Shown: one piece after another, positions 8,101-41,387 of the stretch
Layout: each line of letters starts with the position of its first letter
How positions within the stretch are numbered: the stretch's first letter is position 1
Assembly (NCBI GenBank): GCA_905178155.1
Contig: CAJINV010000001.1
Location: 3,029,675 to 3,093,674, forward strand
Length of the DNA: 64,000 bases
Direction: 5' to 3'
DNA from: Amoebophrya sp. A120
Taxonomy: Eukaryota > Protista > Dinoflagellata
Position numbers and translations under genes: made by a program
The notes under the pieces: model-generated
Told to the model about the DNA's origin: nothing
The model's input: only the letters and a program-made list of their open reading frames with translations
The model's database searches: none

Positions 8101-11100
8101 TAGCGGACTTTTAGCGAAGCGGAGGTCATGGAGAGGTTATGGAAGTGTCAGAATCGAAATTGACAAAATCGAAAAATTTCTGATGCACAAAATCGATGTC
8201 AGTTCGAGCCTCAGTTTCCAAGTAGCGCGTGACAAATTTCGGGAGCACCCAAATCCAGTCTGTCATGCTGTATGGGCAAAGAAGACTGCTCCTGTCGTGC
8301 TACTCTGGCAGCACATTGTATACCCCTAAACAGGCTTGCAATCGGTCTCATTTGCCTGCTCCCCAATACAGGCCTTCGGTGCCCTACATTTTACGCATCA
8401 CAAATTTTTCGATTTTGTCGATTTCGATCCTGACACATCCATAGAGGTAGTCTTGGCCGTACTTTTTCATCTCCGCGATCTTTTCCGCCTGCGCCGCGAC
8501 TAAGTCCATCGCCATCTCGTATCCTGTGCAAAAGTATCGTACTCGTACTAATTGCGTTTATGCATCACAATTTTTTTCTTAAGGCAAATCCGCATTACAA
8601 ATTTAATTTGTAATGCTAAGCCAATTTGTTATGCAATTTATACTAGTACGATGCTTTTGCAATGCATATCTCGCGCGCTTTTGCAATGCATTCGAAGGTG
8701 AGCACCGCCTCCGCGAGCGGGGGGAACAGGTCGGCGAAACGGGTGCCGCCAAACCTGCAAGGGAAAGGGTAAGGGTTTGTGAAGGCATTAGCATTGCGAA
8801 ATCACTGCACAACCGCAACAACCTGTAAAAAGTTAAAGTTGTATCCAGCACGCAGCAGCACGTGATAAACGAAACTGTCCTGGGAGCTCACGATGGAGAA
8901 AAGATGAAATGAAAATGAAAATTATGTTGAAAATGGAAATTTAGTAATACTCTTGAATGACGTCTTTTCCCGCCTGACAGGCCCTCTCATTCACCATGGC
9001 GTCCTCGTGCGTTAGGTTTTTCAGCACTGCGCACTATCCTGTGCAAAAGTATCGCACTCGTACTGATTGCAAATATGCATGACCAATCTCCTTCCTGAGG
9101 TAAAACAGCATTACAAATTCGAATTTTCTTGTTGCCAAAATTTGTGATGCAATTTATACTAGTACGATACTTTTGCAATGCATACACACCAGGCCTGGTC
9201 GACGTACCTTTCGAAAATGTCTGCTTTGCAGAGAAACGACACCGCCCACAGGGCGCCGTCGCGCTGGCGCGGGTTTCCCGTGAGTAATCTTGGAATCAAC
9301 ACGTGGTAGAAGACCGGCGCAAACAGCGGCGCCACCTGGTTCAAGACCTCTGACAGGGAGTGCCCAGCGCCGGTTCGGTCGTTCAGCGCCTGATGCTGGT
9401 CGGCGTCATTGGACTCTAGTTTGCTTAGAAGCCACGGGAGAATTCTCGTTTGGAGGAGATCCGGGAGATGCTTGGAAAGCGTTCCAAAGGCCTTCGCGGC
9501 CTCGCGTTGAATTTCAAAGGTCGGGTCCACTGCGAGTTCTTCCAGCTGTGGAATTTTTTGAAATAACTGGCGTATCTTTTTCATGCTCATCAGCTTCATG
9601 ATTCTAGACCGTGTACGCAAAGTGAAAGAACTTGCAGCTTGGCTGTGTAGCAAGAATGAGCAACATGAATGGCAATGAGAAGGCAAAAAACTTCGTTCAA
9701 TCGCAGCTTACCGTTGGCAAGAGCGCGGGCAGGTAGCTCATCAAAACATCTGGGTGCTCGATCAGGATGACGCACGCGCCGACGATTTGGATGCCGTTTT
9801 TCTTCGCATCGTGCTATCGCAAGAAAAAAGTGTTACAGTTACACATTGTGTTGTAGGCCGAGCAAGGCAGACAAGCTCTGTCATGCCGGATATGCATAGG
9901 AGCCTCGTTGCATAGGTGTTTTCCTTTTCATTTCCCGTAGCAGGGTCTGGGTTTCTGCATTACAAGTTTTTTCGCTCATGCAGAGAAATTTGTGTTAGTG
10001 TTGCTGAATTCACTACAAATGTGTAACTGTAACACTTTTTTCGTGGGATACGTGCTGTCTCTCCTTCATGGCTCGGTGGACAATTGGGAAGAGCAGGGCG
10101 AAGGACGCTGCGTCGACGTAGTGGAGAAACGTGGTGTTCTATGCAAGAAAAAAACTGTCTAAGTTTCTTGAGGAATAGCATCACAAGTTTGGGTTTGCTC
10201 TGCACGACACAGAAAACCTGGCATGCGTACTTAGGAGCAGCTAGTACTTGAAAACACGTACGAAAATAGCCTCTGATGTATGTCCAGCATGACAAGTGTA
10301 TACAGTTTTGCATTTTCTGCAAGACAAAGTTACACTTACACAGTTTTTTTTCTTGGATATGTTCGCGATTTTGTACAGTGTCTCGTTTGCGAGCTTCATG
10401 TTGCCAAAATCGAGCAGGCAGGAAATCAACGCCGGGGCCATGGTTCGGATCTCCGGGCATGTGACAATCTCGCCGACGCGGGTCAACAGCTTTGTGCCCT
10501 GCTCTTTCAATTCACCGCGCACTTCCGAGACTGCCCCGCGCAGAACAGGGACGATTTGGGGCAAAAAACTCGCCATCTGCTTGGGACAGTGTTCGCGCAG
10601 AAGATCGAGAATGGTCCCGCAAAGATCAAGGGCGACAAGCTGTTGAAGTAATATATTTGTGATGCTACAGGGTCTGCTTCAGTGCAAAATAATTTTGGGA
10701 CTGGATTTGCTATACTACAATCAAAAACAAAGATAAACAGCCGAAAACCTCCTACCTTGACTTTCCATTTCGACCCTGGCGGCTTTTCAATCGCGCCGAG
10801 TATTACCGGCAAGAATGCTGGCAACGCGTTTCCCCGTCCCGACTGCAGCACTGCCTCCAACACCTTCGTGACTTGGGCCGCGAGCTTCCCTTCGTGCGAT
10901 AGAGCTAGCAAGTCCAGATATACGGTCGACATCAGCGACGTGCAAAACGCAAGCTGCTCACAGACACTAATCGCGTTCGGAATCGCGTGTGGGGGTTTTT
11001 TCGTGGCTAGTGCCGTATTTATCTTCGCCGCGCTCGCGAGCACCAGATCCTTTTCGGAAACGGACCGCGCCATGGGTCCCAGGGCTTCCAAGTCCTTCTT

Positions 11101-11529
11101 TGAGCCTGTGTCAAGGATCTTTTGGATCTTATCCACCACCTCCTGCAAGCCAGCCTCTATTACCACCGGCGCTGGTGCGGGTTTGGTCTTCCCATCTGGC
11201 AGATCGGGCGTGGCAGACGTACTGGACGCCGCCGTCGACGCCCCTTCCTTGGAAGACGGCGTACTTCCGTTCGCGAGAGCTGCGCCATTGGCCGCTCCGT
11301 CTCCTGTTGGAGCGGCGGGTGCGGCTGGTTTACTGGCTTCATCTGTCTGCACGAGCTTCAGACACGCTTTGTATTGCGGTCCGTCTTTCAACTTTGCAAT
11401 TTCGTCCTGCAGCCCCTGTCGCTGCCGGGCGAATTTCTTCCCGGACAAGGACCCGCATTGCTCCAGCTTGTCTTTAATCTGCCCTTCGATCTTCGCAACA
11501 TACTTGTGGCTGTCTTCCAAAGAAAGCAT
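5148..11529 (-). CDS. YEF3: Elongation factor 3-like ABC-F ATPase (GCN1-type HEAT repeats, 2 ABC domains, chromo-like insert), ~1502 aa, 11 exons
   Basis: Walker A GRNGAGKTT and GKNGAGKST; LSGGWRMR and FSAGQKSK signatures; LDEPTN twice; YEIRWENL chromo-like segment; HEAT segments such as TTFLHYVDAASFALLFPIVHRAM. GT-AG introns 5761-5916, 7674-7826, 8755-8950, 9546-9711, 10640-10755 plus 5 introners; spliced length 4509 nt is in frame. Confidence 0.85.
8138..8443. mobile_element. Introner/MITE family B (306 bp), non-canonical intron in EF3-like gene
   Basis: ~55-bp TIR TATGGA(A/T)GTGTCAG...; TSD GAGGT at 8133-8137 and 8444-8448; removal gives GQDYL|SMTSASLK. Confidence 0.92.
8520..8668. mobile_element. 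Introner/MITE family A (149 bp)
   Basis: TATCCTGTGCAAAAGTATCGTACT...AGTACGATGCTTTTGCAATGCATA; TSD TCTCG at 8515-8519 and 8669-8673; removal gives IAKARE|MAMDL. Confidence 0.92.
9035..9184. mobile_element. Introner/MITE family A (150 bp)
   Basis: Same TIRs as 8520; TSD CGCAC/CACAC with 1 mismatch at 9030-9034 and 9185-9189; removal gives DQAWC|AVLKNL. Confidence 0.88.
9815..10050. mobile_element. Introner/MITE family E (236 bp)
   Basis: TIR TATC..A.GAAAAAAGTGTTACAGTTACACATT; TSD CGTGC at 9810-9814 and 10051-10055; removal gives MKERQH|DAKKNG. Confidence 0.92.
10140..10359. mobile_element. Introner/MITE related to family E (220 bp)
   Basis: TIR TAT(G/C)CAAGAAAAAAA(A)CTGT; TSD TGTTC at 10135-10139 and 10360-10364; removal gives YKIAN|TTFLHY. 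Confidence 0.9.
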
Positions 11530-12305
11530 TTCAGTGGGTGGAAGCACCGGGAAATCGAGTTTGATTGAAGAACAAGTAGTCGTGCGTAAACAAATCAACA
11601 AACCGTGTACGACGTCCAGAAGAGCTTGTTGTCAATTTCTATTTCTAGTAGTGGGGCATAGCGAAGTTGCTTGCGTTGCAATGTAATTTTCACGTTTCCT
11701 CTGCTTGCTGCAAGAGGTGGAGCAAATGCGAAAAAAACTTTTTAAGTAGCTAAGTAGGTGAAGTCATGTTCAAATAACGGTAGAATTGAAGGTGGATGCT
11801 GGGTGTACAGGCGTGCAAAGTCAACGTCGAAGACTTCGGACCTTCTGGGAGCCGGCGGGATCCGATCACCTTCGGACGCATAAGCGATACCATGATCCGG
11901 TTCATCTTTTTCATTGTCTTCCTTCGTTCCAAATCCAGTCTGCAAAGTTGTAGCGAACTGGAACTGCTTCGTTGATCTTCGTTTTCATCATGCGCCCAAG
12001 ATGCAACGTAGGAGAGCAGATCTGCTTCTCTTGGGATCAGAAGTTTAAATCCATCCTAAAAAAATACTTGTCCACCCGAACACAAGAAAAATGCGATCTT
12101 GGAGCCTCTGACTTGGGGATGAAGACGTGTTCGCTTCATCTGTTGGCGTGGTACTTATCTCCTTGTGGTACCTCGCGATGCCCACATAGTCATAGAGCAG
12201 CAGGACACCCGCGGCCTGTAGTACTGCTTCGGAGTTCGAGTTCTTTCTCTTCGTATTTTCTTCAACCATATCCCATCTTGAGCAGTGATGCCCGATCTAT
12301 CACTA

Positions 12306-14666
12306 TCATACAGCATCATCATCCTGAAAGAGCTCCGCGTGGAAGTCGCACTTCAACTTGGTTGCCTTGTCGCTGCTTTCCGCGCCGTCCAGCAGCTGTA
12401 GCTCCAATTCCAAATGGTCGCCGTGCTCCACGCCAGCCACGCCCTCCGGCGTTCCCGTCATGATAACGTCGCCAGGCATCAAGGGAAAAACCTTGCTAAT
12501 GTGCGCAATCAAAAAGGGAACGTCGAAAAGTAGATCCTTCGTCGAGGTGGACTGTCGCACTTTTCCATTCACTTTCAGCTCCAATCCGAACTCTGCGTGA
12601 GGAAGGGCGCTCTTGCAGGAGGCTGTTTTATTCAGTTATGTCGAAATGTATTCTTACATATACATCCAAAACTCAGTAAAACCTGCGAACGCAGTGATGA
12701 AAAAGTATGCTTTTTTTTAGTATGAGATCAACTATAAACCATAAGCAAAGAGAAGTAGTGCAGATCCTAGTGTTCAAGGAGGATTAAGATAGGTCTCTGC
12801 TCATCTCCTCCTCCGCCGCGGTTCAATGTGATCAGCATGCGTCTTCGGGACTTGTCCGACATCAATGCGGGGCCATCCGCAATGATGTTTTAGCAAGCCG
12901 AGGCTCCTCATCCTCATAGGTACGCAATCGCTCCACCCCGTCACGCTTGGGAAGACACAGCCAGGGTGCGCACGATCTTGCTACGCGAAGAAAGCGGGCA
13001 CCCAAGAGACTGATTTTGTCTTCGACTCCATTAGCCTCTGCTATGTCTTGGCGGCTGTGTCACTGTACCTGTCTCCTTGTGCCCTGTCGCCCAAGCTGAC
13101 TAGCACAAAACAAAGCTTTTCGTTGAATAAAAAAAGGGGATTGGAAGGCATGATCATCAGCGAGGAACGACAGTGGCGGACATTTTTGGAAAGAGCAATC
13201 ATGACGAGTTAGGATCTCTCGTCAGCGTAGCTAGTCTTCTTTCTGCCCTCTTCAGAGACAAAATCTGACTAGAGGAGACGGAAATTATCTCTAGAGGTCG
13301 CGCGCAAGGCACCTGCAAATTGAAGACACGTGACTGCTTTTCAACAAATAATGCCCATGGTAGCGGAAATTTCGGGACTAGGGGTCATCCTCTGCTTTCT
13401 TATCAAAGTGCGACATCTATATCTTCCGAAGAGAAGGAGCATAGGATGTTTCTTCTCTTCACCTTTGATATTGAAATTCTCAAGGTTCGTCCGTCACTTT
13501 CCACCCCCTTGAAGCCCCTCACTACCAATTGCAAAGAAGAGGAAAAATCTTATGAAGTCAAAAAAATGCCAACGGCAGAGCCGGAATCCCCAACCTTCCG
13601 CCGATATAGCACCCACTATGAAGTACTTACAGAGGGATATACGAAACTGCTGCCCTTAGAAAGAAAATACAGAAAAGAGACCGCTATCGTATTCGGGGGG
13701 AAAAAATCGAAGCAGGGTGCTATTTTTTGATTGAGAAATGAATTGAGTCATCCAGGGGCATCCGGGGAGGTATTTTATCAATGCGTCGAGAAACTGCTAT
13801 ACCACATCCCTTCATTTGCCCCTGGATGTTAATATCTGTTGTGCTCAGTAGTTATTGTTGTCCTTAGCCAATCGAACCACGGGCGCTAACGCAGGTAACC
13901 ACGATACGCCAACATGAATCGACGAAATTTCATCATCCTCCTACAACTCTATCGAAATTGGAGATGGTATGCTTGAAACTAAAATGCGTTGTTTAGCTCA
14001 CGTTCAACGAGGACTACGAGGACGACGAGGTCTGTACTTATAGTTATAATGGTAAATATTTTTACCGGCAAGACTGCCACCCGCGGCGTCACTTCCATTT
14101 GGCAAACACTCCGCAGTCGTCAGGTAGTTTCTCGGTAGAGGCAGAAAGTGAGGCCTCCCCTTAGCCACGTCCCACGGGTGTCCGTTGTCCTTCGCGGCGG
14201 TCTGTGGGTCCCGGGCCGTCATGTCCAACCCCACTGTAAAACCCCGCACGTACTGCAGCGCGTCTTGCTCCCTCACGTTGTATGCCTGCTTGCCTATTAT
14301 CACGGCCAGTTCAATCTCGTGGTGCACGGGGCCGCAGCTCTTCGGGTACATGATCGGCGAATCGAACACGAGGGAGGTTCTTGGTTTCTGAAACAGGATC
14401 GGGTCGTGGCTCGGGCGCGACTGTCGCGTTCTCGAGATTGGGTTCGACCCCGTGTGCAAATGACTCGGGTCGGTTTTCTGCTTTTTCGCTTTCGGCAGAT
14501 CCTTCTCGTACTTTTCCCACATTTCGTCGATGTGCTTGCTGTAATTTTTCCCAACACCAATGATGGTCTGCAGACCTGAAAGGTACTCCGGGTAGTCCTT
14601 CACGAAGGGAAGAGGCGGCAGTACCCTGCTCGCGGCGCCGCGAGACAGTTTGCTCGCTGCTAGCAT
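12306..14666 (-). CDS. FAHD1: Fumarylacetoacetate hydrolase-family protein (FAHD1-like), ~305 aa, 2 exons (14666-14066, 12622-12306)
   Basis: IIGVGKNYSKH, PILFQKP, HHEIELAVIIG, LDMTARDPQ, WDVAKG, LMPGDVIMTGTPEGV motifs; 1443-bp GT-AG intron 12623-14065; transit-peptide-like N-terminus. Confidence 0.88.
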
Positions 14667-15438
14667 GTCTGGAGACGAGGGTGACGGGGGCATCAACGAA
14701 CAGGTGGAACAAGGGCATGCAGGTTATTTCAATAGGTGTTGTGAGCAGCTTGTTGTCCTCTCACTCTACAAACTTGACTCTGCTGCAAGTGCAACCAAAA
14801 AAGATGTTGACAATCCCACAGCGGAAGTATGGAAGAAGATGTTCACGTATCGCTAAGGCAAAGTTCGAAGGCTGAAAATGCCAGAACTAAGAAGTGCTTC
14901 TTCATGAAGACAGAAGACTGATGATGCTTGTGCAGGATTATGTACAGCATGTTGATGACCATGTACCGAGGAGAACCAGACCGACTTTGCAAGTCGCTCT
15001 CGTAACGGCCTACTACACTCAGCATCCACCAGTATGGTCGTGCAGAGAACTAAGCGAGGCTCATTTGCAAGACCTGGAGAAACATGCGATCATCCACAGA
15101 CTGGATCCTTTCATCCACAAGCACAACCGTTGATATTTGCATTCATTTCGCCAATTTGGATTTTCTTCAAATGAAATAGTAGCAGACAGCTGCGAGCTGA
15201 GCTTGTACATTTGTGCAGAAAAATTGCAATGCGAGTTTCATTTTTGTCTTCGGATTCTTTCTACAGGACCCACGGAGACAGAAGTAGGTTACTAGTATCT
15301 ACGTATGGGTCGCTCTTGTGTACACTACCTCGAAAAAGCAAAACAGATTCATTCGCAGGCCTGTTCACAGACTGTATTCTCGAACAAAACTGAAAGTGAA
15401 ACATATCAAAACGGCACCTGCACAGCATTCTCCTACTG

Positions 15439-17985
15439 TCACAGCCCGTCGCCTTCTTCCGCGGCCAACTCCGCAAGTCTCCTCTTCCCGCGCTCCTCCT
15501 CCCGCCCGGACATTCGATACGCCCAGACCTTTTTTAGCAATCTTTCCAGTCTCGCCTTCACTGCTGGGTCGGTGCTGTACGGATGCCGTGGTAGGAGCCT
15601 CCACAGAGCCTCTGCGATGGAATCTAGCACTGAATCGGAACAGTAACCGATCAATTCCAACACACGCAACCGCACTTCGGACTCAACAGCTCGTACGAGA
15701 ATTAGCTCGAGCAAAGCAACGTGACCGTCGACCAGCTGTTGAATTTCATCGGATGGTGCACTAACCTCTCCGAAAGAAGAGATATCCCCGTCCGCGTCTT
15801 GATCTGGAAGACAAGGCGGAGTCTGATGTTCCGCTGCAACTGGGGAACAAGAAGATGCGGCTGTTGAGACTGATGCCATCGACGAAGGCGAAAATGTTGT
15901 GCACGAGGAAGTGCCGGCAGTAGCACCACAGGCTGTTAGTTGATCCTTGACCCCATGTTCATACACTGACACAGAAACTGAAAGAAGCCAGAATTGCACC
16001 CACGCCAGGTCATTCTCGTGCTTCGCAAGTTCCTTCTTCCATCTCACATGCAGCCGCGTGATCGAATCAAGCTGCCTCGGTGACGTAGATGTGGTGGCTG
16101 TTGATGTACTAGCGCCATCACCTATTTCACCAGAAGAGACTGATGGTTGCTGTGAAATAAGTGGCACACTAAGCCGCGAAGATGGAGTTCCACCTGGCAC
16201 CTGTTCTTCAACTCCTACTTTATCTCCGCCTAGTAGCTGCGGGATGCTTTGGTCAAGAAGATTCGTCAACGCACGCACATGCTGCCTCGTGAAGCCAAAA
16301 GTATCGGCGTAGAACCACTCCGGGCCGCAGCCGTAGCAGATGTTGTAGATGATCCGCCACAGGAGTTGCCTCTCGTGCTGAAGCTGATCATTTGCATTTG
16401 CCTCATCTTCCTCGCGGTTTTGCAGTTCTTGTGCCATCATCTCGTCCTCAACATCCCGCGCTTGCCGCGGCAGCTCCTCGTTGTCGGCTGGAATCATGTC
16501 TGTGTCGACGTCTTCAAGAACAACATGATCTTGCTCTTCAACCACCATGTCGGAGTCCTCTGCAGCGGTCCCAGTTCTAGACGTGGAGGCAAGTTCGATC
16601 CCAAGTTTTACAACGCTGTCCCGAATGAACCCCGCAAGTTCTCTCGCGAAACGCCGGTCGACACAGAAATTGCACGCTGCGGTCGAGAAGTTCGGCTGAG
16701 AGCCGTAAAACGGCACGCGCAAAAAGGCATCGCTGGAACGCGGAGGTGGGTGAACGGCCTCTTGTCCGAAGAGGCCCCGGTCACTTTTTCTCTTGCGCAG
16801 GAACGTCCCGTGATCGTTCCATCCAGGGTTGGTTGCAGCTGGTGGTGCTGCTGGTGCTGGTGGCGGTGGGTGCATAAGAACTTCATGATGATCTTCAGGA
16901 GCATGATCGTTGCCCTTATTTTTCTTGGGATTTGATGCCACGCTCCCATCTGGATTTCTCGGTTGTTCGCTTACTACGCACTGTCTTCTCCGACTCAGCA
17001 GCGCGCTTTCCTTCTCGTGCCCGAGCGAATTTTTCCAGCACAAACATGTCGTCTTTGGAGGACCGTGCGTAGTGTCCCTCGTCCCAGCACCTCCTTGGCA
17101 GCTAGTCCCTGATGAACTTCCAGAATTCGTTCTACGCGCAATGCGGTCCGCTGGAAGGACAAAATTTAGGCGCAAAATGGTCATCAACAAACTCGCCCTA
17201 CACGTGTGCGCGCAGCCAGAGTGATCCGCACACGACGACCGAATGGTGTGGAGGACGTTCCGCCCCCATTTTTCCTGCACGCGCGTGGCGTCAGCGTCCA
17301 CCACACTTTGCCTTGCAGCGGTGCGCGGGGAAGCAGATGAACTCGAAGATTCCGCTCTGGTGGCCGTCGGAAGCGGGATCGATGCACAGACTGGACGAGA
17401 GGCTATGCACCCGACGACCGGGCGGCATTTGTTCGCAGTGGAGGTTCTGTTGCAGGCACCTAATCCCTCAATAATCTCCCCTGCACTGAACCGGCGCAGT
17501 AGCGGTAGAATGTGGGTGCAGCTGAACGTTAGTGGCGACCGCTGCAATTCGTGACTGAGTGTTTTCAGCAACAATTTGCGTCCGGGTCTGTTTACGTCCA
17601 AAAAGTCCGCGTCCGGGCGAAATCGGTCCTGCCAGAGTTTCACCGCCTGCACAAAGTCCTGCCACGAGCGAGCCCCTTTCAGCTGTTTCTCCACATTTGC
17701 CCGAAAACTTCCCGGAAGATCGCTGTGCAACACCTGGTGGTGCAAAGCCGCCGTTGCGGTCGAGCCAGAGGCTAATTTCAGAAAGTCCCCAGTGCCAGCA
17801 GCTCGCGCAACGTTGTTGGAAAGGATCTCGGATGGGAGGAGAGAGAGAAGATTCACACAAAAACTTGCAGATGGTTCATTAGTGACGACTTCATTTGGAT
17901 CTAGTTGCTGCAGGAGCTCCTCGCCAGTCGACCAGTCTTCTTCCATCTCAATCGCCTTCGCGGCTCGTTCAGGCGTTGCAACCAT
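15439..17985 (-). CDS. Hypothetical protein with N-terminal F-box-like motif (~848 aa)
   Basis: Long intronless ORF; LLSLLPSEILSNNVARAAGTGDFLKLASGS resembles an F-box; start chosen at MVATPER. Confidence 0.6.
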   Translation of the reverse strand: MVATPERAAKAIEMEEDWSTGEELLQQLDPNEVVTNEPSASFCVNLLSLLPSEILSNNVARAAGTGDFLKLASGSTATAALHHQVLHSDLPGSFRANVEKQLKGARSWQDFVQAVKLWQDRFRPDADFLDVNRPGRKLLLKTLSHELQRSPLTFSCTHILPLLRRFSAGEIIEGLGACNRTSTANKCRPVVGCIASRPVCASIPLPTATRAESSSSSASPRTAARQSVVDADATRVQEKWGRNVLHTIRSSCADHSGCAHTCRASLLMTILRLNFVLPADRIARRTNSGSSSGTSCQGGAGTRDTTHGPPKTTCLCWKNSLGHEKESALLSRRRQCVVSEQPRNPDGSVASNPKKNKGNDHAPEDHHEVLMHPPPPAPAAPPAATNPGWNDHGTFLRKRKSDRGLFGQEAVHPPPRSSDAFLRVPFYGSQPNFSTAACNFCVDRRFARELAGFIRDSVVKLGIELASTSRTGTAAEDSDMVVEEQDHVVLEDVDTDMIPADNEELPRQARDVEDEMMAQELQNREEDEANANDQLQHERQLLWRIIYNICYGCGPEWFYADTFGFTRQHVRALTNLLDQSIPQLLGGDKVGVEEQVPGGTPSSRLSVPLISQQPSVSSGEIGDGASTSTATTSTSPRQLDSITRLHVRWKKELAKHENDLAWVQFWLLSVSVSVYEHGVKDQLTACGATAGTSSCTTFSPSSMASVSTAASSCSPVAAEHQTPPCLPDQDADGDISSFGEVSAPSDEIQQLVDGHVALLELILVRAVESEVRLRVLELIGYCSDSVLDSIAEALWRLLPRHPYSTDPAVKARLERLLKKVWAYRMSGREEERGKRRLAELAAEEGDGL

Positions 17986-26102: not shown

Positions 26103-28980
26103 TCACGGAATGGGTAGCTGCGGCTCGGAACGGCTTCCCTCGCGCGCAGCTGCCATGGTTCTTTTCCAGTCTGCGAACCACTGGGGCACCCAGGCCAACT
26201 TGCGCGAGAAGCTGGACGGGTCAACGTATTCTCTTGACGTCACGACGTGGACCCGTCTTCCTTCCTCGGCGTCCCAGCGCCAGCCCCACCTACGCTTCAT
26301 CACTTGCATTTGTGTTGTTAAACCTGCATGGCCCCCCGAGCCCGACGGCAGCTCGCGCTCACGCAGCAGAACCCAAGTGAGTTTCCCATTGCTGAAGAAT
26401 CCGGTCGTGGCCCGAGTAGCTGGAATGGGCTTGAATCCCTCCGCCCTGGGAACGTCCGAGAAGTACTTAGCTGCATCATCCGTGTCTTCGAAGCACCAGG
26501 CCTTCTTTTGCACCACATCCACAATCAGCAACAGCCTGTTCGCATTTTATCAAAACGAAAAATATCCCCTCCCCATATCAAAACGGAAATCTGTGATGCG
26601 GAATTTCTGTACACAAATCAAATCTGTCTTGCAGTAGAGCAATGCACGCAGATCGCAAGCCTAGACAGGGGCCTCTTGCTGTAGGCGCCTAGCATGGCAG
26701 ACGTCTGCCCTGTAGGCCCTACAGCATTACAAATCGCCTACATAACGCGGGGGACAGCCTAAAGTTGCCTTCTTGCATGACAAACCGGATTTGTGGTCAC
26801 AAATCTGCAACGCAAATTTCCAGGACGGTGCGTTTTCAATATGGGGAGGGGGGATTTTTCCTTACGATACATTTTTCAGAGCGTCCTGCGTGAAAGCGTC
26901 CGTATCATCGGGATCACACTGCATGATGTGTTCGTCTCTGGGAGGATGAGCACTTGCCCCTTGTTGTCCCCGTGGTGATCCATGTTCTTGCCCACCATGT
27001 TGCGGTTGCGGTCGCGGCGACGGCGGGCGCTGCGCAGCGCTTGCTGGCCGCCCCGCATGATGTGCTTGTTGCGCCTCGTCTTGTAGTAAAAACGAATGAT
27101 TTTCCCACTCCGATGAATCATCGTCGTGCAGTAAAGACGAATAATTTTCCCACTCCGAATCAGCTGAAGGCTGCAGAGACGACGAAACCCCAGTCGCAAT
27201 ATTACCTCCACCAACGCGAGAACCACCACCCCGACCACGGCTTTCACGATTCTGGCGTTCGACCGCGTGGCGGAAGGAGTGGCAGACTCGTGTGAAATCT
27301 GCCGGCAGCCGTTCGTCGAGCACCTCGATTTGGTCGAGCTGCGTGTCGATGAAGTCCGCGTTATGGAACTGTCAGGATTGAAATCGTCAAAGCTGAGATA
27401 GTTTGTCATGCATAAAATCCAAGGCATGAAGTGCCGGTCTTGCCGGGATGGCAAGTGAGGCAGATTGTGAGCCTATTTAGGGTTCGAAATAGAGCTGCTA
27501 AAAAAGTATGACAGAAGCAGTCCTCTGTGCCCAAACAGCATGACGAATTGGATTCCGGTTCTCCTATGATTTGTCATGCGCCGCTTGGAAATTGGGCTTC
27601 CAACTGGTATCCATTTTATGCATGGCAAACTATTTCAACTTTGACGATTTCAATCCTGACGCTTCCATACGCGTCGAGCAGCATGTAGTTCCACGGCTCC
27701 AGTGCGGTCTCCGCGGTCGGGTGGAGCCCGGCGCGCACAGCCTCCCGGACCCCAGCCTGGTCGAAAAAGCAGTCCACCCTCGCCTGCGAGAAGTCCACCA
27801 GCACCAAAGGTCGCGCGGTGATCGGCTGGTTGGTCAGCGGGTCCACCGGATTGCCGGCCTGGCAAGCGGGTTCGTACTGCCAAGAAGACCGACCTGAAGA
27901 AGGGAATAATGTTGATCCCCATGATGATGATCCTTGATCATGACCTTCCCCGAGGCCGCCGTGGTTGCTCATCAAGGTGCTTTGATGTTGATCAGCCAAA
28001 CCGCCGAATGGTTCCCCCGTCGAGGTCGCCTGTGGTTGCGCGACTTGTGCAGGAGGAGAAGCTGGACCAACATTCGTACTAGAGGACCGCCCGCTCCTCG
28101 TGCGACCACCCCGAGCAGGAGCTCCTGTAGTTGTGCTCCCGTGGCCTGCTGCTGCAGGTTTTGCGCGTGCAGGACGAGCCGGCTGTTGCGCTGGTCGTGG
28201 CTGCACTTGTTGCAGTCCTCCCGCTTCTGCTGCAGGGCCGCCGGTGAATTGATCGTAGGTCGGGTCTAGTAGTCTCAGCCTCTCCCTGCGCATGGCCTCG
28301 GGAGAACGTGCTCGATCTGGCAGTGTTAGGGCTCCTGAACCAGAGGATCGCGCAGCTGGCGTAGCTCCACCCCTTCTGGCCGCACGCGCAGCTGCTGCTG
28401 CCGAGTGAGTCCCTTGGTGAGGCGCTCCGCGGTGCTGACGCACCGGCCAACCGGCTTCTGCGAGCGCTGCGGGGGGTGGCGGCACTACGAAGTTATCGAG
28501 GCCCCCTCTTCGATGCAGTCCCCCGTATGTGTCCGAACGTCGTCGTTGTCCAGATGGTGTGCCAGAAGCTTTCGGAGCAGGCGCCGGTCGTCCTGGAGTG
28601 GGCGACGGAGATCTACTCGTTGGCTGTGACGAGCGGTTGTTCTGTGGCGACGACCACCACCAGTTCTGCCAGCGGCCCCAGCGATCTCGCCACCACTCCC
28701 CCACCCGCCAGCGCCACCCTTGCTGTGATGGATCAGCGTAGTGGTTGTGGTTGTATCCGCCTCCCGCGTTGCGCGGGAGGCGGGACGGTTCGGTTGTCGA
28801 GTCAGCTGCAACGGGCACAATCAAGTCGTTGCACCAGCAGCTGATGAAAGAGGTAGTGCTACAAACTGACGCAGCAACAAGAACTGCAGCTGACATCAGT
28901 TTGTATTGCCGGGCCGCAGCACTGCGCCGCACGTGGTCGCCTGAGCGGTTCTGGTTCATCTTCGCGTCGACCTTGTTCAT
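26103..28980 (-). CDS. Hypothetical protein with signal-like N-terminus and U-box-like segment (~745 aa), split by 2 introners
   Basis: Three ORFs fuse in frame after removing introners (LLDA|DFIDTQ; ALKN|ANRLLL); spliced length 2238 nt; DPLTNQPITARPLVLVD...FFDQAGVREAV. Confidence 0.7.
26548..26869. mobile_element. Introner/MITE family D (322 bp)
   Basis: TIR TAT......GAAAAAT...CCCCTCCCCATAT; TSD CATTT at 26543-26547 and 26870-26874. Confidence 0.92.
27086..27161. repeat. Coding tandem duplication, ~45-bp period
   Basis: GTAAA.ACGAAT.ATTTTCCCACTCCGA twice; encodes SEWENYSSLLHD / SEWENHSFLLQD. Confidence 0.8.
27362..27669. mobile_element. Introner/MITE family B (308 bp)
   Basis: ~57-bp TIR TATGGAA..GTCAGGATTGAAATCGTCAAAG; TSD CGCGT at 27357-27361 and 27670-27674. 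Confidence 0.92.
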
Positions 28981-30703
28981 TTTACACGTCGTGATCGGTC
29001 GTGGTCTCGATGTTCGGAGTCTATCGATCTGATGTTCTGTTCTCCACGTAAATAGATAGTATTTGTATTTCCTTTTCCGTATGTCGAAATATCCCTGGCG
29101 CTCCCCAAATTGTTGCCCGGAATGCTGTAGGTAGTTTCTGCAGCCGCGGTCCCGTTTATTGGAGTTCGATGTGATCCCAATCGATATGTGGTCTCATCTA
29201 TATTTCTTGTGCTGCGTGCCGTCGGCCTTTATTGCGCTTGCCATTGACGTCGCTGGAATTCTATGCGGCCCCGGGAGTTCGCGTTGTAGTTGTTTCTGAC
29301 AGGATGTTGGAATTTACTAAAGAATATTTCCGCCGCGCATTCTCTGCGACAACCCAACATGCACTTTCTGCTTGTGTGTTGTCTAAATGACGAGTGTTGT
29401 AAAAGTATTCTTCAGATTGTATTCCTCAATATCGAAACAATGTAAAAAGGAAATTTTGGTGTGTGAAACCAAAACTGTGGTAAGCGAATACACAATCTGC
29501 ACACTGAGTTTTTGTTTTTCTATATCACACAACCCTACATGATAAAATATCCTACTTCTTTACACGCACATAAGTACGCGCTAGGTGAAACAGGCTGTAG
29601 TTTTGAGGAAGCGATGGAATCATGAAAGAAAATCAACAGAGCAACGTCAAGAACAAGAATAGACAAGGAAAACTGAATCAGCAATCAGAAGCGGTTTTCG
29701 TACTTCTTCCTTTAGTTTGCAGGACCTTCAGCGCGTTAGCACGAGAAACGAAAATGAGAGATCTCCACGAAAAGAAGAAAAAGCGCAATAGCGTGTAAGT
29801 AGTACTATTTCAGGAATGATCTGCGGCGTCTTTTGGCATTTCTGAGCAGCCACATAGATAGTTGTCTTTAGTTTTCGTTTAGAAAATGCATATTTCGATC
29901 CAAGACCAAGGATCTCGCTCATCTTAATTACAATTACAGCTGGAGCTGCTTGACCTACTGCTGGAATGATCAACATGAAAGAACTCGGGATCTCCCTGCA
30001 CACAGATATTTCTTTCGGTGAACGAATCTTCACTTCAGGAAACCCAAGCAGAACCGTATCAGCGCGTGCATTTTCTCCTTCGTCATTGACACCGACTCGC
30101 ATTTCTTTTCTGCTTAGAAACCTTACCGTATATTTCCATCTTGCAGCGGGTTGAGTCAATTTATTCTCTGTCTTTCTGTGGTTAATCCAGAACCAAAGCA
30201 AACGAATACTGAACACTGAATACCACCAGAATGTAATGCAAATGTAGCAGAGTATTTATGTTCTTATTACAATTGGAAATTAGTAGTTTGACATGCAAAT
30301 AATCACATGACTCAAGGCCTGTGGAGTACAACATTGGGTCCATGGGAATAATGTTCATCTTCATGTTCTTTTACCATTGAATCTGTAATGCTGAGATTGG
30401 ATTTGTAATGCTATTTCTCGTCGTGTTCTTGTTTTGTTGTTGTCTTAAGATCTTCATAGCATTGGTCAATTTAGCATTCTGGATCGAGTGCTGAGCATTT
30501 TAGTTGGAGCATGAGCATATGCTGACACTTTCTTCAGTGTCAAGAATCATGATTTGGATTTTGTCTCGTAATCGCAACCCGTCGGGTGATCTTCTTTTAC
30601 TAGATGAGGGAGGAACGAGGAACAAATACAGCTAAAGGATCGATAAGAGCAAGTATCTGGTGCTGCGTGATCAAGAAAACGTCATGCGACGTACACTCCA
30701 ATT

Positions 30704-31899
30704 TTACTTCTTCGCCAGACCGCCAAGTGCGTTGGCCTTCCTGGTTTTTTCGAGCCAGGTTTCCACTCGTGGGATTTCTTGGTTTGGGTGACTCGTGGCG
30801 ATAGTGTGCACCAAGACACCTCTTTCCGCTTTCGAGTCCGGTAGCTGCGTGCGCATCTCGGGGTGTCGGTTGCGGATGCGCTTGCCGAAAAAGACGGAGT
30901 ATCAAATGTAAAAATGTCTGGGTCTGGAAGGATGCAAGATCTGTCATGCTTCTCTGGCATGACTGAAAAGTTTTGTGATGCGTATCCAAGAAGAGACCCT
31001 GGTGTTGCCTGTCATTCAAAACGCAGCTTGTCATGCGGAAAGCGCAACACTAAGTAGCGCAAATATTTCTCGTGCTTGGCTGTGCATTACAGAGAGTTCA
31101 CTCCTCACAACTCAGCATTACAAGTTTCCAGAGGACCCAGACATTTTTACATTTGATACGGAGAATTTTTGTTTCATTTTGATCACCGTGAGCTTGCCGA
31201 AATCCTGTTCGCGTATCAAGTGCAAAAATGTCTGGGTCTGGAAGAATGCAAGTTGAAGTTTGTCATGCTTGTCTCATATGACTCTTAAACTTGTCATGCA
31301 CATTACCCAAGAGCCCCATTTTTCTGTCATGCAGAAACGCAGTCCGTCATGCAGAATAGGCAACACCTCGAAGCTCAGAAACTTGTCATGCTGAGCCAGC
31401 ACTTGTGGCCTCTTCGTGATACGCCACCCAGCATAACAAGTTTCCAGACCCAGACATTTTTGCATTTGATATCGCGGTCGCGGCAGCAAGTCGAGGTAAG
31501 CTGCGCATTGTAGGCGTCCGGCGGCCCGAATTTTCTGAGCCAGTCCTGCAAGCTGTCCATCTTTGGCCCGAGGAAATCCTTGTCCCCCAGCTTTGGAACC
31601 GGTTCAGCGTCTTGCTCATCCGGAGGGGTCTTGTTATTTCCATCGGCATCTAGATGTTGCTCTCCCGCAACTTCGGCTGAAGGCGCTTGTTCTGGTGTGA
31701 TGCGAGTGCCGTACTTGTACTTTTTATTTTTGTACTCACGTTTCAAGTGCGGGTCGGTGCCGGGCTTGTGACGGAACACCATCTCTGCCTCTTCCTCGCG
31801 TACGCTGCCGTAGTGCGCCAACCAATCCTCGGGCTTTCGCATGGTTATACCCCGCTTCTGGAAGGCACCACTAGTCCACGTCTTGGGGAGGTAGGACAT
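30704..31899 (-). CDS. Hypothetical protein (222 aa), split by 2 introners
   Basis: Removing both elements gives CCRDRE|QDFGKLTVIKMKQKFS|VFFGKRIRNRHPEM...GGLAKK*; spliced length 669 nt. Confidence 0.75.
30900..31158. mobile_element. Introner/MITE family C (259 bp)
   Basis: TIR TATCAAATGTAAAAATGTCTGGGTC; TSD CGGAG at 30895-30899 and 31159-31163. Confidence 0.92.
31214..31471. mobile_element. Introner/MITE family C (258 bp)
   Basis: TIR TATCAA(G/A)TGCAAAAATGTCTGGGTCTGGAA; TSD TCGCG at 31209-31213 and 31472-31476. Confidence 0.92.
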
Positions 31900-32664
31900 T
31901 TTGTTCAGGAGACTAGTTGTACTATGGAGATTTTTAAAAAATGCGTATGGCGCTATAATTAATGTCGATGAAAAACTGTAGAAGCGCGATAAGGGGAAGA
32001 AGAAAATCCAGTGAACATAGACGAGAGCAAATACGAGACAGATAAAACCTGTAGTTGCGGAATCAGAGACTAGGGGGACGAGAGAGGTGGCAACAGAGAA
32101 GCAGATCTAGATTCAATTTTGAATCGCTGAAAGTAACCACACGAAAATAAGTGGCTGCAGCGCACTTTCGGTGCCTCTGGCGACGAGGGCCACTTCCACA
32201 ACGATGCCAAGTTATTGTTATGCTGGCTCGAGTTTTTGCAGCAAGTTGTTACACCGACAGGCGAACGCATTCCTTTTTCCTTTCAACCGACGATTCCTCT
32301 ATCAGATCTTCAGACCACACCGAAGTACCTATTGTTGTAGTTTTTTCCGAAGTGAAACCACGAGAAGCCGCCAACAAACCACACGAAAGGTTTTTGCGCA
32401 GGGTAAACCGAGTCTCTGGAAGCTCAGGGCCGCTGGGGCGAGGTAGTATGACAGAGAGGAAACCGATATGTAAGTAGTAGTTGAGCTTGAGGTGACAATG
32501 GCACCAAAGAACGATGATGTAGAAAACCTAACCAAGTGGTCCTGACTCAACTGAAATTCCATCGCGATGAATTTTAGGAATGATAACGATATTCAGGCAT
32601 TACCAGGTCGTTCCACTGCTTCTAGACAATGTGTACCAAGATAAAGTACTCCTCCAAAATTTAT

Positions 32665-35600
32665 TCATTTGTACTCCAAAAACACTCTCTGGAACGCGGG
32701 GTCGAAATTTCGGAGTTCGTTTTCCAAAATCTTGACTTTCTTCATCAACACGGGTTCGTTCCGCGCGACGAGATCCCGTTTCATCGTCATCCAATGCGCC
32801 ATCAAGCAGGCCTTGTCCTCCCGCACATTGGTCATGCCGTAACTGCAGGCGAACCCGGCGGGGGCCACGCCCTTCCGCGCATCCAGACTGACGGCTTTGT
32901 TCACGCGCGGCAGGGTCTCGTCGTTGTACCGGAATCCCGGGCCGTGCAGGGCTTTCCACTCTTTGTCGTGCGGATCGTTCACATTGTCGTCGCAGAAATC
33001 GATCATGTGATAGATCTCGTGGAAAAACGCGTTCTTCCGCCAGCCGCCCGGTGTCGACCAGTTCAGAAACACTTTTTTCGGCTTCTTCGGGCCTTGGTAG
33101 TAGGCCAAGCCGCCGCACGAAAAGCCGCCCATCTTCAGATCGTTCACCACGACTATCTCGTCCAGGCACTTTCGTTTCTTCAGAAACGAGCAGGGCACGC
33201 ACCGGAGCATGGACAGCAGGCTCGTCGGATCCGTTGGGGAGAGAAGCAGGTTCCGGTCGAACTGATCGAGCACTTTCCCCGCCATGATGCGTGCCTGTTT
33301 CGTGTCTTCCGGCGCCACGCCGTCCAACTTTAAGCGGATGCCGAACATGATCTCGAAACTCTTGATGCGGTCTTCCGGACTCATGGCCTCTATTCTGCTG
33401 ATCGGAAAGTGCGGGTCGGACTTGCACTCGTTCGGGTTGACTGGTGGGGGGCGGGGTGCGGGCTTCTGTGGCTGCTGTGCCGGTGGCTTCGCGGGGGAGG
33501 AAGATGAAGCACTAGCAGCTTTTTGTTGCTGCTGTAGTTGATTTTTTCTCCTCTGCTCCTCCTGAAATCGCCTTTCCAACTCAGCGACCCCTGCCTGATA
33601 TTTCCTCTCCTCCTCTTCCGCTCGCCTCTTTGCTTCCAGCGCTTTTTGTTGTTGCTGCTGCTGTAGTTGTTCTTGTTTTTTTTTCCTCGTCTGCTCCTCC
33701 TGATATTGCCTTTCTAGCTCAGCAATTTCCGCCTGATATTTCCTCTCCTCCTCTTCCGCTCGCCTTTTTGCTTCCAGCGCTTTTTGTTGTTGCTGCTGCT
33801 GTAGTTGTTTTTTTTGCTTCTGCTCCTCGTCATAAATCCTTTGCAGCTCAGCAATTTCCGCCTGATACTCCCTCTCCTCCTTTTCCGCTCGCCTCTTTGC
33901 TTCCAGCGCTTCTTGTTGCTGCTGCTGCTGCACTTGTTGTTTTTGCTTCTGCTCCTCGTCATAAATCCTTTGCAGCTCAGCGATCTCCGCCTGGTATTCC
34001 GCCTCCGCCTCGTCCTCCTTCCTCTTCCGTTCCAAATACTCTGCGATCTCCCGCTCATACTGCCTCCTCTCCTCCTCTTGCAACCTTTTTCTCGCTTCGG
34101 CCTGCTTGCGTCGCTGCGCCTCCCGCCCGGCCTCCGCCTGCTGGGCCTTTGCCTGCGCTTCCGCTTCCGCCGCGCGCTTGGCGTCCTCCCGCGCCTTCGC
34201 AATCCGCGCTTCACTGGCCCGGACCTCCGCTTCCGCCTTTTTCTTTGCCTCGGCGGCCACCTTCGCGGCGGCTTCCGCCTCTTTCTGCGCCGCCTCGGCG
34301 GCTTTTTTTTCCGCTTCCACGGCTTTCTTTTGGGCCTCCTCTGCGGCTTTTTTTTTCCTCTCCAACTCCGCTCGCGCTTTCTCGGCCGCCTCGCGCTTCG
34401 CTTTCGCCTCGGCCTCTCGTTTCGCCTTCTCCTCCGCCTCCTTCTTCGCTCGCTCCTCCGCCAGTTTCTTCATTTCTGCCGCCTCGGCCGCTGCCGCACC
34501 TGCGGGTGGAGCTGGACTCGCGGCAACCAACATCGCTCCAGCTCCTCCGAATGAATCATCATCGTCGTCGCCATCGAATAACCACGGCTCCACACCGGCG
34601 TCATCTGCGATGTCGTCGGGTAGTCCCTTCAGCATTTCTTCGAGGTTCGCGCCTTGGCACAATTGAAGGTCCCGCAGCGCCTGCAGCGCCTTGTCCGGAC
34701 GACCGAGCAGAATCGTGTCAAACTCCTGCCGCGTCAAGCTTTTCCCCGGGTCGGTTTTGTCCCGGTCCTTGATCATCGCCACAAGCATTCCCTCCGGGAA
34801 ACCCAGGCTGTCCTCGCGGTCCTTCAACTGCGCTATTACATCGTTCAGACACAGGGCTGAAGAGCTCTTCGAAGATGTAGATGCTCCAGGAGGAGCTCCA
34901 CCTTCTGGAACAACATCTTCAAAGGCGTTTTTGTTCACGGCCCAGACGTACAAGGCCGCCGCCTTCATCATTTGCAAAAAGTCGCGAACTTGCGTCAAGT
35001 TCAGGCTTCCCTTGTCCTCGTCGTCGAAGAATTTCAACACGTGGGGGGCGATATGCATTGCAAAAGTATCGCAGCACTCGTATAAATGCATTACAAATTT
35101 CCTCAGCATGAGAAACAGAAGCTGTGATGCGGATTTGCCTTAAGAGCAAGATTTGTAATGCAAGACTTGCATTTATACGAATACGATACTTTTGCACAGG
35201 ATAGGCGAGAGCCTCGCTCTGTCCCGCGTAGTACATCAGTTTCTTCAACTCGGCCTCGCCGTTCACCTCGCCATTTTATCCTGTGCAAAAGTATCGCACT
35301 CGTACTAATTGCAAATATGCATGGCAAATATGTTTCCTAGGGCAAAACAGCATTACAAATTCCACTTTCCTTCTTGCCAAAATATGTCATGCAATTTATA
35401 CTAATACGACTAGTAGTACGATACTTTTGCAGTGCATACATTTCCGTCCTCGTCAATAAGGTCCATCGCCTCGTTCAGTTCCGCGATTTCCCAGGGCTCC
35501 AACGCCACCCCGCCGACTCCGGAGATATCAAATGCAAAAATGTCTGGGTCTGGAAGATTTCTAGATTTGTCATGCATATTTTCCATGACCCGCGATGTCT

Positions 35601-36264
35601 GTGAGGCATGCCGTAGCATCACAGATTTTTCGATTGCTTTGTGATACCTCTACCGCATCAGAAACGCCCTCTCCGCGTAGCACAAAGTGGAGTCCTCTTG
35701 CTGGCCATGCAATACAAATTTTTTTAGAATCCAGACACAGCATCACAAGTTTAGAATGTTCCAGACCCAGACATATTTGCAATTCATAGGATAGCATCTC
35801 GAACAAGTTTTCGTACGTGATGGCGCCTTCGTGATACTATGCATTGCAAAAGTATCGTACTCGTACTAATTGCGTTTATGCATTACAAATCTCTTTATTA
35901 AGGCGAATCCGCATTACAAATTTAATTTGTAATGCTAAGTGAATTTGTAATGCAATTTATACTAGTACGATACTTTTGCACAGGATAGATACAAGTGTTC
36001 TGTGAAGGAAAGGAATTCACCCTCCAGGATCTCCGCGTTCGGGCCATAGTAGTTTTTCACGAACCCCTTCAACTCACTCGGCTTGCCCTGGTACGTCTTC
36101 CCGGTCTGGAGTTCCTCCAAATCGATGCCCAGAATTTCGCACGCGTTCTCAAGCTCGGAGCCCGTCAACTTGCCGTCGTGATTCTCGTCCATGGTGCGAA
36201 AAATGGCGGCGCCGACCTCAGGCGCCCACGGGAGACCAGCCTGCGCGCCGGAACCGGTCGGCAT
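32665..36264 (-). CDS. EF-hand + coiled-coil + HEXXH zinc-metallopeptidase-like protein (~950 aa), split by 4 introners
   Basis: EF loops DENHDGKLTGSE, DEDGNGEVNGEAE, DDEDKGSLNLTQ, DKTDPGKSLTRQE; HEIYH and YGMTNVREDKA; spliced length 2853 nt in frame. Confidence 0.82.
33530..34010. repeat. Coding tandem repeat (~3 units of ~130-140 bp)
   Basis: Repeated YQAEIAEL...QQQQQQKALEAKRRAEEEERK. Confidence 0.85.
35052..35203. mobile_element. Introner/MITE family A (152 bp), inverted relative to 8520
   Basis: TATGCATTGCAAAAG...CTTTTGCACAGGATA; TSD GGCGA at 35047-35051 and 35204-35208; removal gives SEALA|PHVLKF. Confidence 0.92.
35277..35438. mobile_element. Introner/MITE family A (162 bp)
   Basis: TATCCTGTGCAAAAG...CTTTTGCAGTGCATA; TSD CATTT at 35272-35276 and 35439-35443; interrupts EF loop DEDGN|GEVN. 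Confidence 0.92.
35526..35788. mobile_element. Introner/MITE family C (263 bp)
   Basis: Colinear with 60827-61089; TSD GGAGA/GGATA with 1 mismatch at 35521-35525 and 35789-35793; removal gives FEMLS|GVGG. Confidence 0.9.
35838..35987. mobile_element. Introner/MITE family A (150 bp), ends swapped relative to interior
   Basis: TSD GATAC at 35833-35837 and 35988-35992; removal gives EHLY|HEGAITY. Confidence 0.92.
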
Positions 36265-41012: not shown

Positions 41013-41387
41013 AATGACATCTTGTGTTTTTTTGTTGCTTTGTGTTGACACACACAGGAACGAAGATCTAGGAAGAATGCTGACCACCACACGCACGCTC
41101 TAATTGATCCGTGATGTTGTGATCAAGATCATATATGTCGATGACAATCTGCACAATGAGACGAGCCTAGAAGTCTACTAGAAGACCGAAAAAAACGTCA
41201 TGGCTTCTTGCGCCATGCTGTGTTTAGCAGCCCACGCGAACACTGCGGTCTAGCCGGGAGGAAGGACAAGACGGAGCGCCCGGTTGTCCAACAGAAGACG
41301 AGACGAGTAGGTATTTCTATTTTTTACAGAGACGCGGGCGAGGCTCAACACCTGACTCTGCTAGTACCGCGGAGCTGCTACCAATTA

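Follow-up and report, generated by a model that had tools for sequence, protein, structure and literature searches.

Introners of an Amoebophrya A120 locus are probably removed from RNA in either orientation while their outer ends are swapped and overwritten

Amoebophrya-type genomes carry tens of thousands of non-canonical introns, whose removal route was posed as an open question (Farhat et al. 2021, PMC7789003). In the text and legends of that paper, the introners of A120 are described as having inverted repeats that open with TAT and continue with seven looser bases and a run of at least three A, flanked by short direct repeats (3-5 nt; 5 bp in the legend of Fig. S19), with non-canonical ends, a predicted hairpin and co-oriented genes; orientation, end swapping, overwriting and a transcript-polar cut go unmentioned there. 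A literature search on orientation or end exchange in Amoebophrya introners found no reports, and the paper on Galileo yielded no statement about conversion. Among related systems, and as far as the portions drawn on here describe them, the introners of Polarella glacialis and Aureococcus (Roy et al., 10.1101/2020.10.14.339549) are similarly transposon-derived, produce target duplications and act as introns in both orientations. Nonconventional introns of euglenids (PMC11282704) also resemble the present elements, in that inverted repeats join the ends, junctions are non-canonical, duplication-like repeats occur and the pairing is set further from the 3' end than from the 5' end, through a mechanism described as unsettled. 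Euglenids are an unrelated lineage, however, and their CAG/CTG pairing motif and junction consensus, in the sections cited, were not seen in the elements studied here.

The 64,000-nt window (the whole stretch of A120 DNA analyzed) contains 16 elements (Table 1), each bounded by TAT…ATA inverted repeats and flanked by a target duplication of 5 bp. They match the published A120-type introners, sharing the TAT inverted repeat, the direct repeat, non-canonical removal and membership in repeated, hairpin-forming families. TAT starts both ends of all 16, and an A run following TAT and looser bases is visible in families A, C and D as well as in two further ones, while being indistinct in family B and the family of 50657. 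The duplication is exact at 14 elements and has one mismatch at two, in a search that made a 5-bp duplication a requirement; among copies from a relative, for which no duplication was demanded, 120/127 had at most one mismatch. Terminal inverted repeats, fixed-length duplications, occurrence in both orientations and absence of coding capacity are features that the elements also share with MITEs, or non-autonomous cut-and-paste transposons. No transposase was found among the 13 window ORFs scanned, and viral contigs searched for the elements gave no matches. An Rfam search of the whole 64 kb had no match at gathering score, and hence none to a curated self-splicing or tRNA-type intron.

Table 1. 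Introners, related elements and host features in the window (positions in nt)
Feature	Position	Strand	Remark	Evidence
Host region, HEAT-like repeat and ABC domains, five introners	5907..11631 (extent approximate)	-		Pfam, frames, RNA-like contigs
Family B introner	8138..8443		inverted relative to 27362	skipped as 311 nt, X5 and X6
Family A introner, usual ends (TATCCTG left, TATGCAT right)	8520..8668		duplication TCTCG; transcript reads 5' TATGCAT	skipped as 154 nt, run X6
Family A introner, usual ends	9035..9184		mismatched duplication CGCAC/CACAC, limits cut position	skipped as 155 nt, one X3 contig
Ordinary GT-AG intron	9546..9711	-	ends GTAAGC…CCACAG	skipped in X3, X5, X6
TAT…ATA introner, other family	9815..10050			skipped as 241 nt, X3 and X6
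TAT…ATA introner, other family	10140..10359			skipped as 225 nt, X3, X5, X6
Family D element	26548..26869			long minus frame restored on removal
Family B element	27362..27669		opposite orientation to 8138	sequence comparison, frame analysis
Family C-like element	30900..31158		perfect ends	sequence comparison, frame analysis
Family C-like element	31214..31471			sequence comparison, frame analysis
Host gene with EF-hand motifs, four introners	32665..36264	-		~957 codons open after introner removal
Family A introner, fully inverted against 8520	35052..35203		duplication GGCGA	skipped as 157 nt, X3 record 9
Family A introner, usual ends	35277..35438		duplication CATTT; 12-nt insertion in right arm	skipped as 167 nt, X3 record 9
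Family C introner	35526..35788		mismatched duplication GGAGA/GGATA; gene shared with 35838	skipped as 268 nt by record coordinates
Family A introner, outer ends swapped	35838..35987		duplication GATAC	skipped as 155 nt by record coordinates
Family D element	50279..50602		interior sense as 26548; ends resemble crossed layout	long minus frame restored on removal
TAT…ATA element, other family	50657..50891			element search, frame analysis
Family C element	60827..61089		78% to 35526	sequence comparison

The initial annotation held that one introner family sits in both orientations, and the window does contain forward, inverted and end-swapped copies of family A. TATCCTG forms the left end of the copies at 8520, 9035 and 35277, as had been stated. 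The copy at 35052 is a full inversion (its interior is 71% identical to that of 8520 as the reverse complement and 44% in the same sense), while the interior of 35838 shares the sense of 8520 (86.7% identity, against 47% reversed) and its ends are exchanged: the outer 7 bp match those of 8520 at 7/7 and 7/7 positions when crossed but at 4/7 on the same side. The exchange point falls within arm positions 8-24, where the two arms share 17 identical bases. A similar swap proposed for family D (26548 versus 50279) holds in that the interiors have the same sense (70%) and crossed ends are favored (first 10 nt, 8/10 and 8/10 crossed, 6/10 and 6/10 same-side), though this is the weaker case, with two copies only.

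All host genes had been placed on the minus strand, and this agrees with Pfam matches on that strand, removal of a minus-strand GT-AG intron and a best coding frame on the minus strand at 16/16 junctions, called with a model trained on this window. The EF-hand match (E 8e-6) lies slightly below the Pfam cut-off, and the host region at 5907..11631, judged by its HEAT-like repeat and ABC domains, appears to be eEF3-like. Evidence for removal comes from assembled contigs, which can register a skip but not its efficiency, of runs X3-X6, whose RNA label is a tool's guess, none being on record as RNA. Since the GT-AG intron is skipped in X3, X5 and X6, these runs behave as spliced minus-strand RNA, and five further introners are skipped along with this control. 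For all nine of the 16 window elements that RNA-like contigs cover, the element plus 5 nt is missing. In record 9 of X3, five pieces of exon are connected over the positions of 35052, 35277, 35526 and 35838, and the four pieces listed contain no extra letters, such that forward, inverted and end-swapped family A copies are all removed within one transcript. Splicing is thus not confined to one orientation, with usual, inverted and swapped arrangements all absent from RNA-like contigs. In run X4 a joint at the locus was looked for and none was seen, and exon depth at the locus was 0 in the raw RNA runs X9 and X10.

Neither allowed cut yields GT-AG at any of the nine junctions, which places them outside the canonical U2 pattern GT/GC…AG. 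The Polarella and Aureococcus introners differ in this respect, recruiting GT/GC/GA and AG from the element or its duplication (Roy et al., in the portions drawn on here), whereas duplication sequence in the present elements is free, without strong base preference among 82 strand-called copies. The two mismatched duplications (9035 and 35526) suggest that the cut is polar relative to the transcript, a result from two junctions, one of them a single X3 contig of depth 2.2, in which the 9035 junction keeps the right-hand duplication copy, and the other read off record coordinates. The TATCCTG end might have supplied a cryptic TTTTGCACAG acceptor, but RNA-like contigs make no use of one in 8520, 9035 or 35277. 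A preference for TATCCTG at the 5' side of the intron (35 vs 19, p 0.04; 30 vs 11, p 0.004) shrank with a refined caller (31 vs 21, p 0.21), and the strand calls behind it conflicted inside one contig group.

Fold-back recognition, as initially proposed, is compatible with these data, since either strand of all 16 elements folds into a hairpin (z from -2.3 to -12.5), but a shared motif could serve as a sequence signal: GCATNACAA is found at 34 places within the 3,757 element bases and at 4 in the remaining 60,243, on both strands. The argument that splicing in both orientations excludes strand-specific signals does not follow, because TAT…ATA, the arm core and GCATNACAA read alike from either strand, leaving sequence signals possible, and because the cut looks polar. 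Removal of forward, inverted and swapped copies from one transcript instead limits candidate signals to features common to both strands. Such signals (TAT…ATA, the A-rich arm core and GCATNACAA) might be read by a modified U2-type spliceosome, with the hairpin a by-product of transposon ends, an explanation we consider rather unlikely. In its favor, GCATNACAA is common to nearly all families, conservation reaches 97-99% at TAT and at arm positions 9-13 (171 partner-arm readings), Amoebophrya is reported to have most spliceosome parts, and the Fritillaria spliceosome, in the portion of that work drawn on here, handles introns made of transposon ends. Yet the 3' boundary falls in arbitrary duplication sequence, arms vary among families while 9/9 covered copies are removed, and in 6/6 testable copies a mutated TAT does not prevent an open, in-phase frame from being restored, though this is a weak, frame-only test, passed by 72/100 intact copies.

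Our preferred reading, which we consider moderately probable, is that these inverted-repeat introns are cut precisely in either orientation by virtue of hairpin shape, and that their outer 7 bases are swapped or overwritten through template switching or conversion. The element, with the help of a putative enzyme, inserts in either orientation and makes a 5-bp duplication; element and one duplication copy would then be removed without GT-AG, as at the nine covered elements. The stem base would set the cuts: read along the transcript, the 5' cut would lie flush with the first T or 1 nt upstream of it, and the 3' cut 4-5 nt beyond the last A, a placement suggested by the two mismatched duplications. 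An altered spliceosome or another nuclease-ligase might make these cuts. We regard as possible but doubtful the stronger version, a splicing route blind to splice-site sequence and orientation that measures its cuts from the stem base, is tuned to undo the 5-bp duplication and may use a non-spliceosomal nuclease and ligase. If it exists, any transposon with such ends would be a harmless intron on landing, with ends free to trade. Because copies with like ends, a mutated TAT or mismatched duplications occur naturally, existing types of RNA data could be used to test the mechanism.

The ends themselves are less regular than the constant pairing of one TATCCTG with one TATGCA(T/C) end that was first described. 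Among 125 oriented family A copies in the relative's independent assembly, 89 have usual ends, 22 two TATG-type ends, 5 (at 4 loci) swapped ends, 3 two TATCCTG-type ends and 6 are unclear, giving like ends in 25/125. The ratio of 89 usual to 5 swapped copies also contradicts the idea that interiors flip independently of the ends. Exchange between the terminal repeats, which the initial annotation had invoked to invert the interior, is supported, but chiefly as one-way overwriting (the 22 and 3 like-ended copies), reciprocal swaps being rarer. On a tree of 103 columns, for which support is unsettled, six swapped copies require five changes and two-TATG copies at least 11. Swaps recur and are not artefacts, with apparently five origins on this rough tree. 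Single-base variants of the left end bear the TATG-type base in 21/24 cases (10.7 expected), and sites in the shared repeat are barely linked to the interior (mean r2 0.009-0.04, compared with 0.06-0.10 for inner pairs by distance class).

That a swapped copy is an assembly artefact, or that elements are excised from DNA rather than RNA, is very improbable and largely refuted already. Among the contigs listed, with 302 further joints falling outside that listing, none ties the left end of 35838 to the locus, which leaves this reading some room. Against it, swapped copies are also present in the relative's independent assembly, exact DNA-run contigs cross unbroken from exon into element at 35052 and 35987, and the runs that skip elements also skip the GT-AG intron. 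An exact DNA-run contig (35961-36400) further ties the right end of 35838 to its flank.

Template switching at imperfect inverted repeats yields arm homogenization and spacer inversion from one process, repeatedly at one site (PMC8604942, in the portion drawn on here), and likely explains both swaps and overwriting. A switch or crossover within positions 8-24 would invert the interior against the ends (rare, ~3-4% of copies), and one-way copying would produce like or patchwork ends (~20% like), mainly with TATG-type replacing TATCCTG. That such exchange at positions 4-7 is tolerated suggests these positions are free for splicing. In the yeast coding cases of that source, arms measure 10-16 bp and spacers 2-5 bp. 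Those spacers are far shorter than the ~100 bp spacer here, which counts against this explanation, and bias towards one end type is a further difference. A known mutational process is thus the probable source of the end exchange, although its rate here is high and its bias lacks an explanation.

Swaps could instead arise from two successive one-way overwrites, or from parallel point mutation in a tolerant zone, without true inversion. This is rather unlikely, and a little more so than the sequence-signal alternative above. One-way changes outnumber swaps five to one, swapped L032 is sister on the tree to L119 (two TATG ends), as two successive overwrites would predict, and in every family almost all copies have C or G at position 4. 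However, left and right changes are associated: swaps exceed the expectation from two independent overwrites (Fisher p 0.015; 0.041 minus one allelic duplicate), an excess carried by four loci and three copies, one having a hybrid end. Moreover, the ends of 35838 match those of its nearest copy, 8520, exactly (7/7) when crossed, which would take six point changes.

Where the copied sequence comes from bears on a further alternative. In P-element replacement, gap repair fills in between the ends left behind, using a different copy that may enter either way round. End changes may likewise come from exchange between different copies, for instance by gap repair after excision, although we think this unlikely overall. 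Identical ends occur in 8/22 two-TATG copies, a modest excess (4.0-4.4 expected, p 0.02-0.04) that speaks against it, while the other 14 differ in their ends and speak for it. Within-element concordance is absent at arm positions 16 and 21; this, together with the 8/22, indicates that copying inside one element is not the sole route. Right-end subtypes change 37 times on the tree versus 47 when shuffled, and the DNA run holds a great many copies, both in favor of exchange between copies. In contrast, r2 among interior sites shows no drop with distance, two-TATG copies cannot arise by refilling alone, and like-ended copies are more diverged from their nearest copy (83.9 vs 86.7%, p 0.008), as expected of slow change in place. 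Duplication mismatch, tried as an age clock for changed ends, gave no difference (15/49 vs 13/69, p 0.19). The 22:3 bias toward TATG-type over TATCCTG-type like ends counts against our preferred reading. At the right end of the relative's family A copies, TATGAAC is as frequent as TATGCAT.

Introners of every orientation and end arrangement represented among the window's family A copies were removed from RNA. A search of the window for elements that start with TAT or TAC, have matching arms and are flanked by a 5-bp repeat recovered 16, each 149-324 nt long and of TAT…ATA form; the duplication, itself a search criterion, was exact in 14 and carried one mismatch in two. Five belong to family A. 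With 45 nt removed at each element end, the interior of 35052 matched the reverse complement of 8520 at 71% (same-sense, 44%), and that of 35838 matched 8520 same-sense at 86.7% (reversed, 47%). The outer 7 nt of 35838 matched those of 8520 at 7/7 and 7/7 when crossed versus 4/7 on the same side. Together these comparisons support the initial annotation's description of 35052 as a full inversion and of 35838 as an 8520-sense interior with swapped 7-bp ends. Mismatches between the two arms of 35838 fall at positions 4, 6 and 7 and then not before 25, and the identity of the arms across 8-24 places the exchange point within those positions. The swap also proposed for family D is seen in a weaker form, at 8/10 and 8/10 crossed versus 6/10 and 6/10 same-side.

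Elements and other features of the window and of the relative's loci
Feature	Position or locus	Observation
Family A	8520, 9035, 35052, 35277, 35838	All removed from RNA (5/5)
Family B	8138, 27362	Found in both orientations
Family C	35526, 60827	TATC left, TATG right
Family D	26548, 50279	Ends weakly crossed
Family A copies, mutated terminal TAT	L001, L004, L007, L053, L060, L082, L086, L089, L120	Duplication intact or nearly so
GTA/CTA/GCA-like short tandem insertions	35408-35419 region, 35072-35074, many loci	Cluster at arm positions 18-30
Direct repeat	1342-1641, 2219-2518	Exact, 300 nt, 877 nt apart
Tandem repeats in EF-hand host gene	33520-34073	Four, coding, ~129-138 nt
Long frames without introns	52338-58349 and 37068-41099 (minus)	Weak Pfam matches: TFIIIC B-block subunit, FkbM methyltransferase

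Removal of 35052, 35277, 35526 and 35838, each with one duplication copy, yields a minus-strand open frame of ~957 codons whose product has EF-hand similarity. Seven of 11 sequencing runs were aligned to the window. One 1,729-nt contig from the RNA-like run X3 aligns to 35988-36400, 35439-35520, 35204-35271 and 34500-35046 with no extra letters; 44 unlisted letters of its record equal 35789-35832, giving skips of 155, 268, 167 and 157 nt, each the element plus 5. Within 7700-10700, skips of 311, 154, 155, 241 and 225 nt likewise equal element plus 5 (runs X3, X5 and X6; two samples). These runs also skip a 166-nt intron there (GTAAGC…CCACAG on the minus strand), and this GT-AG control identifies them as spliced RNA, the run label itself being a guess. 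All nine elements covered by RNA-like contigs, of the 16 in the window, were removed, including the inverted 35052 and the swapped 35838, so splicing was not confined to one orientation. In the DNA-like run X1, exact contigs cross the exon-element boundary at 35052 and 35987; the contig at 35987 includes one base diagnostic of the right arm and covers the right end of 35838. At 8664-8666, loose ends from X3, X4 and X5 mark RNA-like contigs from other loci that keep family A arms with abnormal last bases, possibly unspliced damaged copies. Relative to the window, an X6 contig carries an additional A behind 10562, which could be an allele or an indel error in the window, and the raw RNA run X9 has a family C end from another locus in 92 reads (35524-35559), without this gene's exons.

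An exact duplication leaves six equivalent cut positions per element. RNA retains the transcript-upstream duplication copy at position 4 for 9035 (one contig, depth 2.2) and at position 2 for 35526 (from piece limits), and at 10140 the joint cannot lie inside the element. Under one common rule, these two junctions suggest that the removed RNA would begin at the first T or 1 nt earlier and end 4-5 nt past the last A. GT-AG occurred at either allowed cut position in none of the nine RNA-covered elements, and each of the five duplication positions holds a mixture of bases (82 of 118 copies, those with a strand call). Polarella and Aureococcus introners are also known in either orientation but use ordinary splice sites (10.1101/2020.10.14.339549); the nearest mechanistic analogue is the euglenid nonconventional introns (PMC11282704).

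Removal in both orientations had been taken to exclude strand-specific signals, which does not follow. Each of the 16 elements forms a fold on either strand, in which 19-30 of its first 30 bases pair with the far end (fold z of -8.1 for 35838), and GCATNACAA has 34 matches in 3,757 element bases versus 4 in 60,243 outside, on both strands. Since shape and motifs are alike on either strand, orientation-blind removal is compatible with sequence signals. GCATNACAA and its reverse recur in otherwise unrelated families among the 16 elements, which makes the motif a candidate binding site of a shared transposase or splicing factor. Recognition by shape fits the free duplication sequence, the family-specific arms, the free positions 4-7 and the mutated-TAT copies that restore frame. 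Nine such family A copies were found and all six testable ones restore frame, a weak test in that intact copies pass in 72/100; the nine are natural tests of the TAT requirement. In the relative, the elements often lie either way round with respect to the gene; an orientation bias seen in one analysis was not upheld in a second.

A pattern scan of metagenome contigs found at least 155 loci; the 80 listed come from one assembly, that of a relative. Among the matches listed, the longest between relative and window are elements only. Among the listed loci are 130 distinct family A copies that have TAT at each end, of which 125 were classified (three left out for length, two because their orientation was unclear). 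When interiors were oriented as in 8520, 89 had the usual ends (TATCCTG-type left, TATG-type right), 22 two TATG-type ends, five swapped ends and three two TATCCTG-type ends, with six unclear. Two of the five swapped copies are alleles of one locus and one is divergent; their presence in an independent assembly shows that swapping is real and no artefact of the window. Two broader claims of the initial annotation fared less well: ends are far from independent of the interior (89:5 usual to swapped, p 6e-21; listed loci), and 25 of the 125 copies have like ends rather than always one of each. In a tree built from 130 interiors (103 columns, rough support), six swapped copies need five changes, and two-TATG copies need 19, at least 11 of them forced by well-supported branches. 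The family C relatives closest to 35526 and 60827 have the reverse end arrangement in 4/9. Family C (35526, 60827; L017, L046, L047, L067, L069, L072, L009) shows TATC and TATG ends in both arrangements, and also like ends.

The element type was described for strain A120 by Farhat et al. 2021 (PMC7789003), who report that U1 snRNA was not found and leave the splicing mechanism open; diverse introners in A120 are also mentioned by Gozashti et al. 2025. We found no report on orientation or end exchange of A120-type elements, although relevant data may exist in figures or preprint supplements. The element type is known; its precise non-canonical removal whatever the orientation, and the repeated exchange of its outer ends, are real and apparently unreported.

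Single-base left-end variants carry the TATG-type base in 21/24 cases versus 10.7 expected, a sequence pattern that suggests patchwise copying of the opposite end type; limits on tolerance at position 4 could contribute to this excess. Two-TATG copies lie further from their closest relatives (83.9% versus 86.7% identity, p 0.008), and 8/22 have identical ends, a modest excess over the 4.0-4.4 expected. Because the other 14 have non-identical ends and no within-element agreement was found at arm positions 16 and 21, repeated events or exchange among copies must play a part. Swaps exceed the prediction of two independent overwrites (p 0.015; 0.041 without the allele; small numbers), in keeping with the proposal that exchange between TIRs inverts the interior, but most change was one-way overwriting (22 + 3 versus five swapped). 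Template switching at imperfect inverted repeats can produce both arm homogenisation and spacer inversion (PMC8604942). Such switching, or an equivalent conversion with occasional crossover, is the likely cause of the end changes; the 22:3 bias toward two-TATG over two-TATCCTG copies is unexplained by this process. Gap repair after excision, as in P-element replacement, could be one route for exchange between copies. The swapped copy at L032:401-565 lacks a clean target duplication; repeats of the element's last five bases come after its right end and may be a repair scar.
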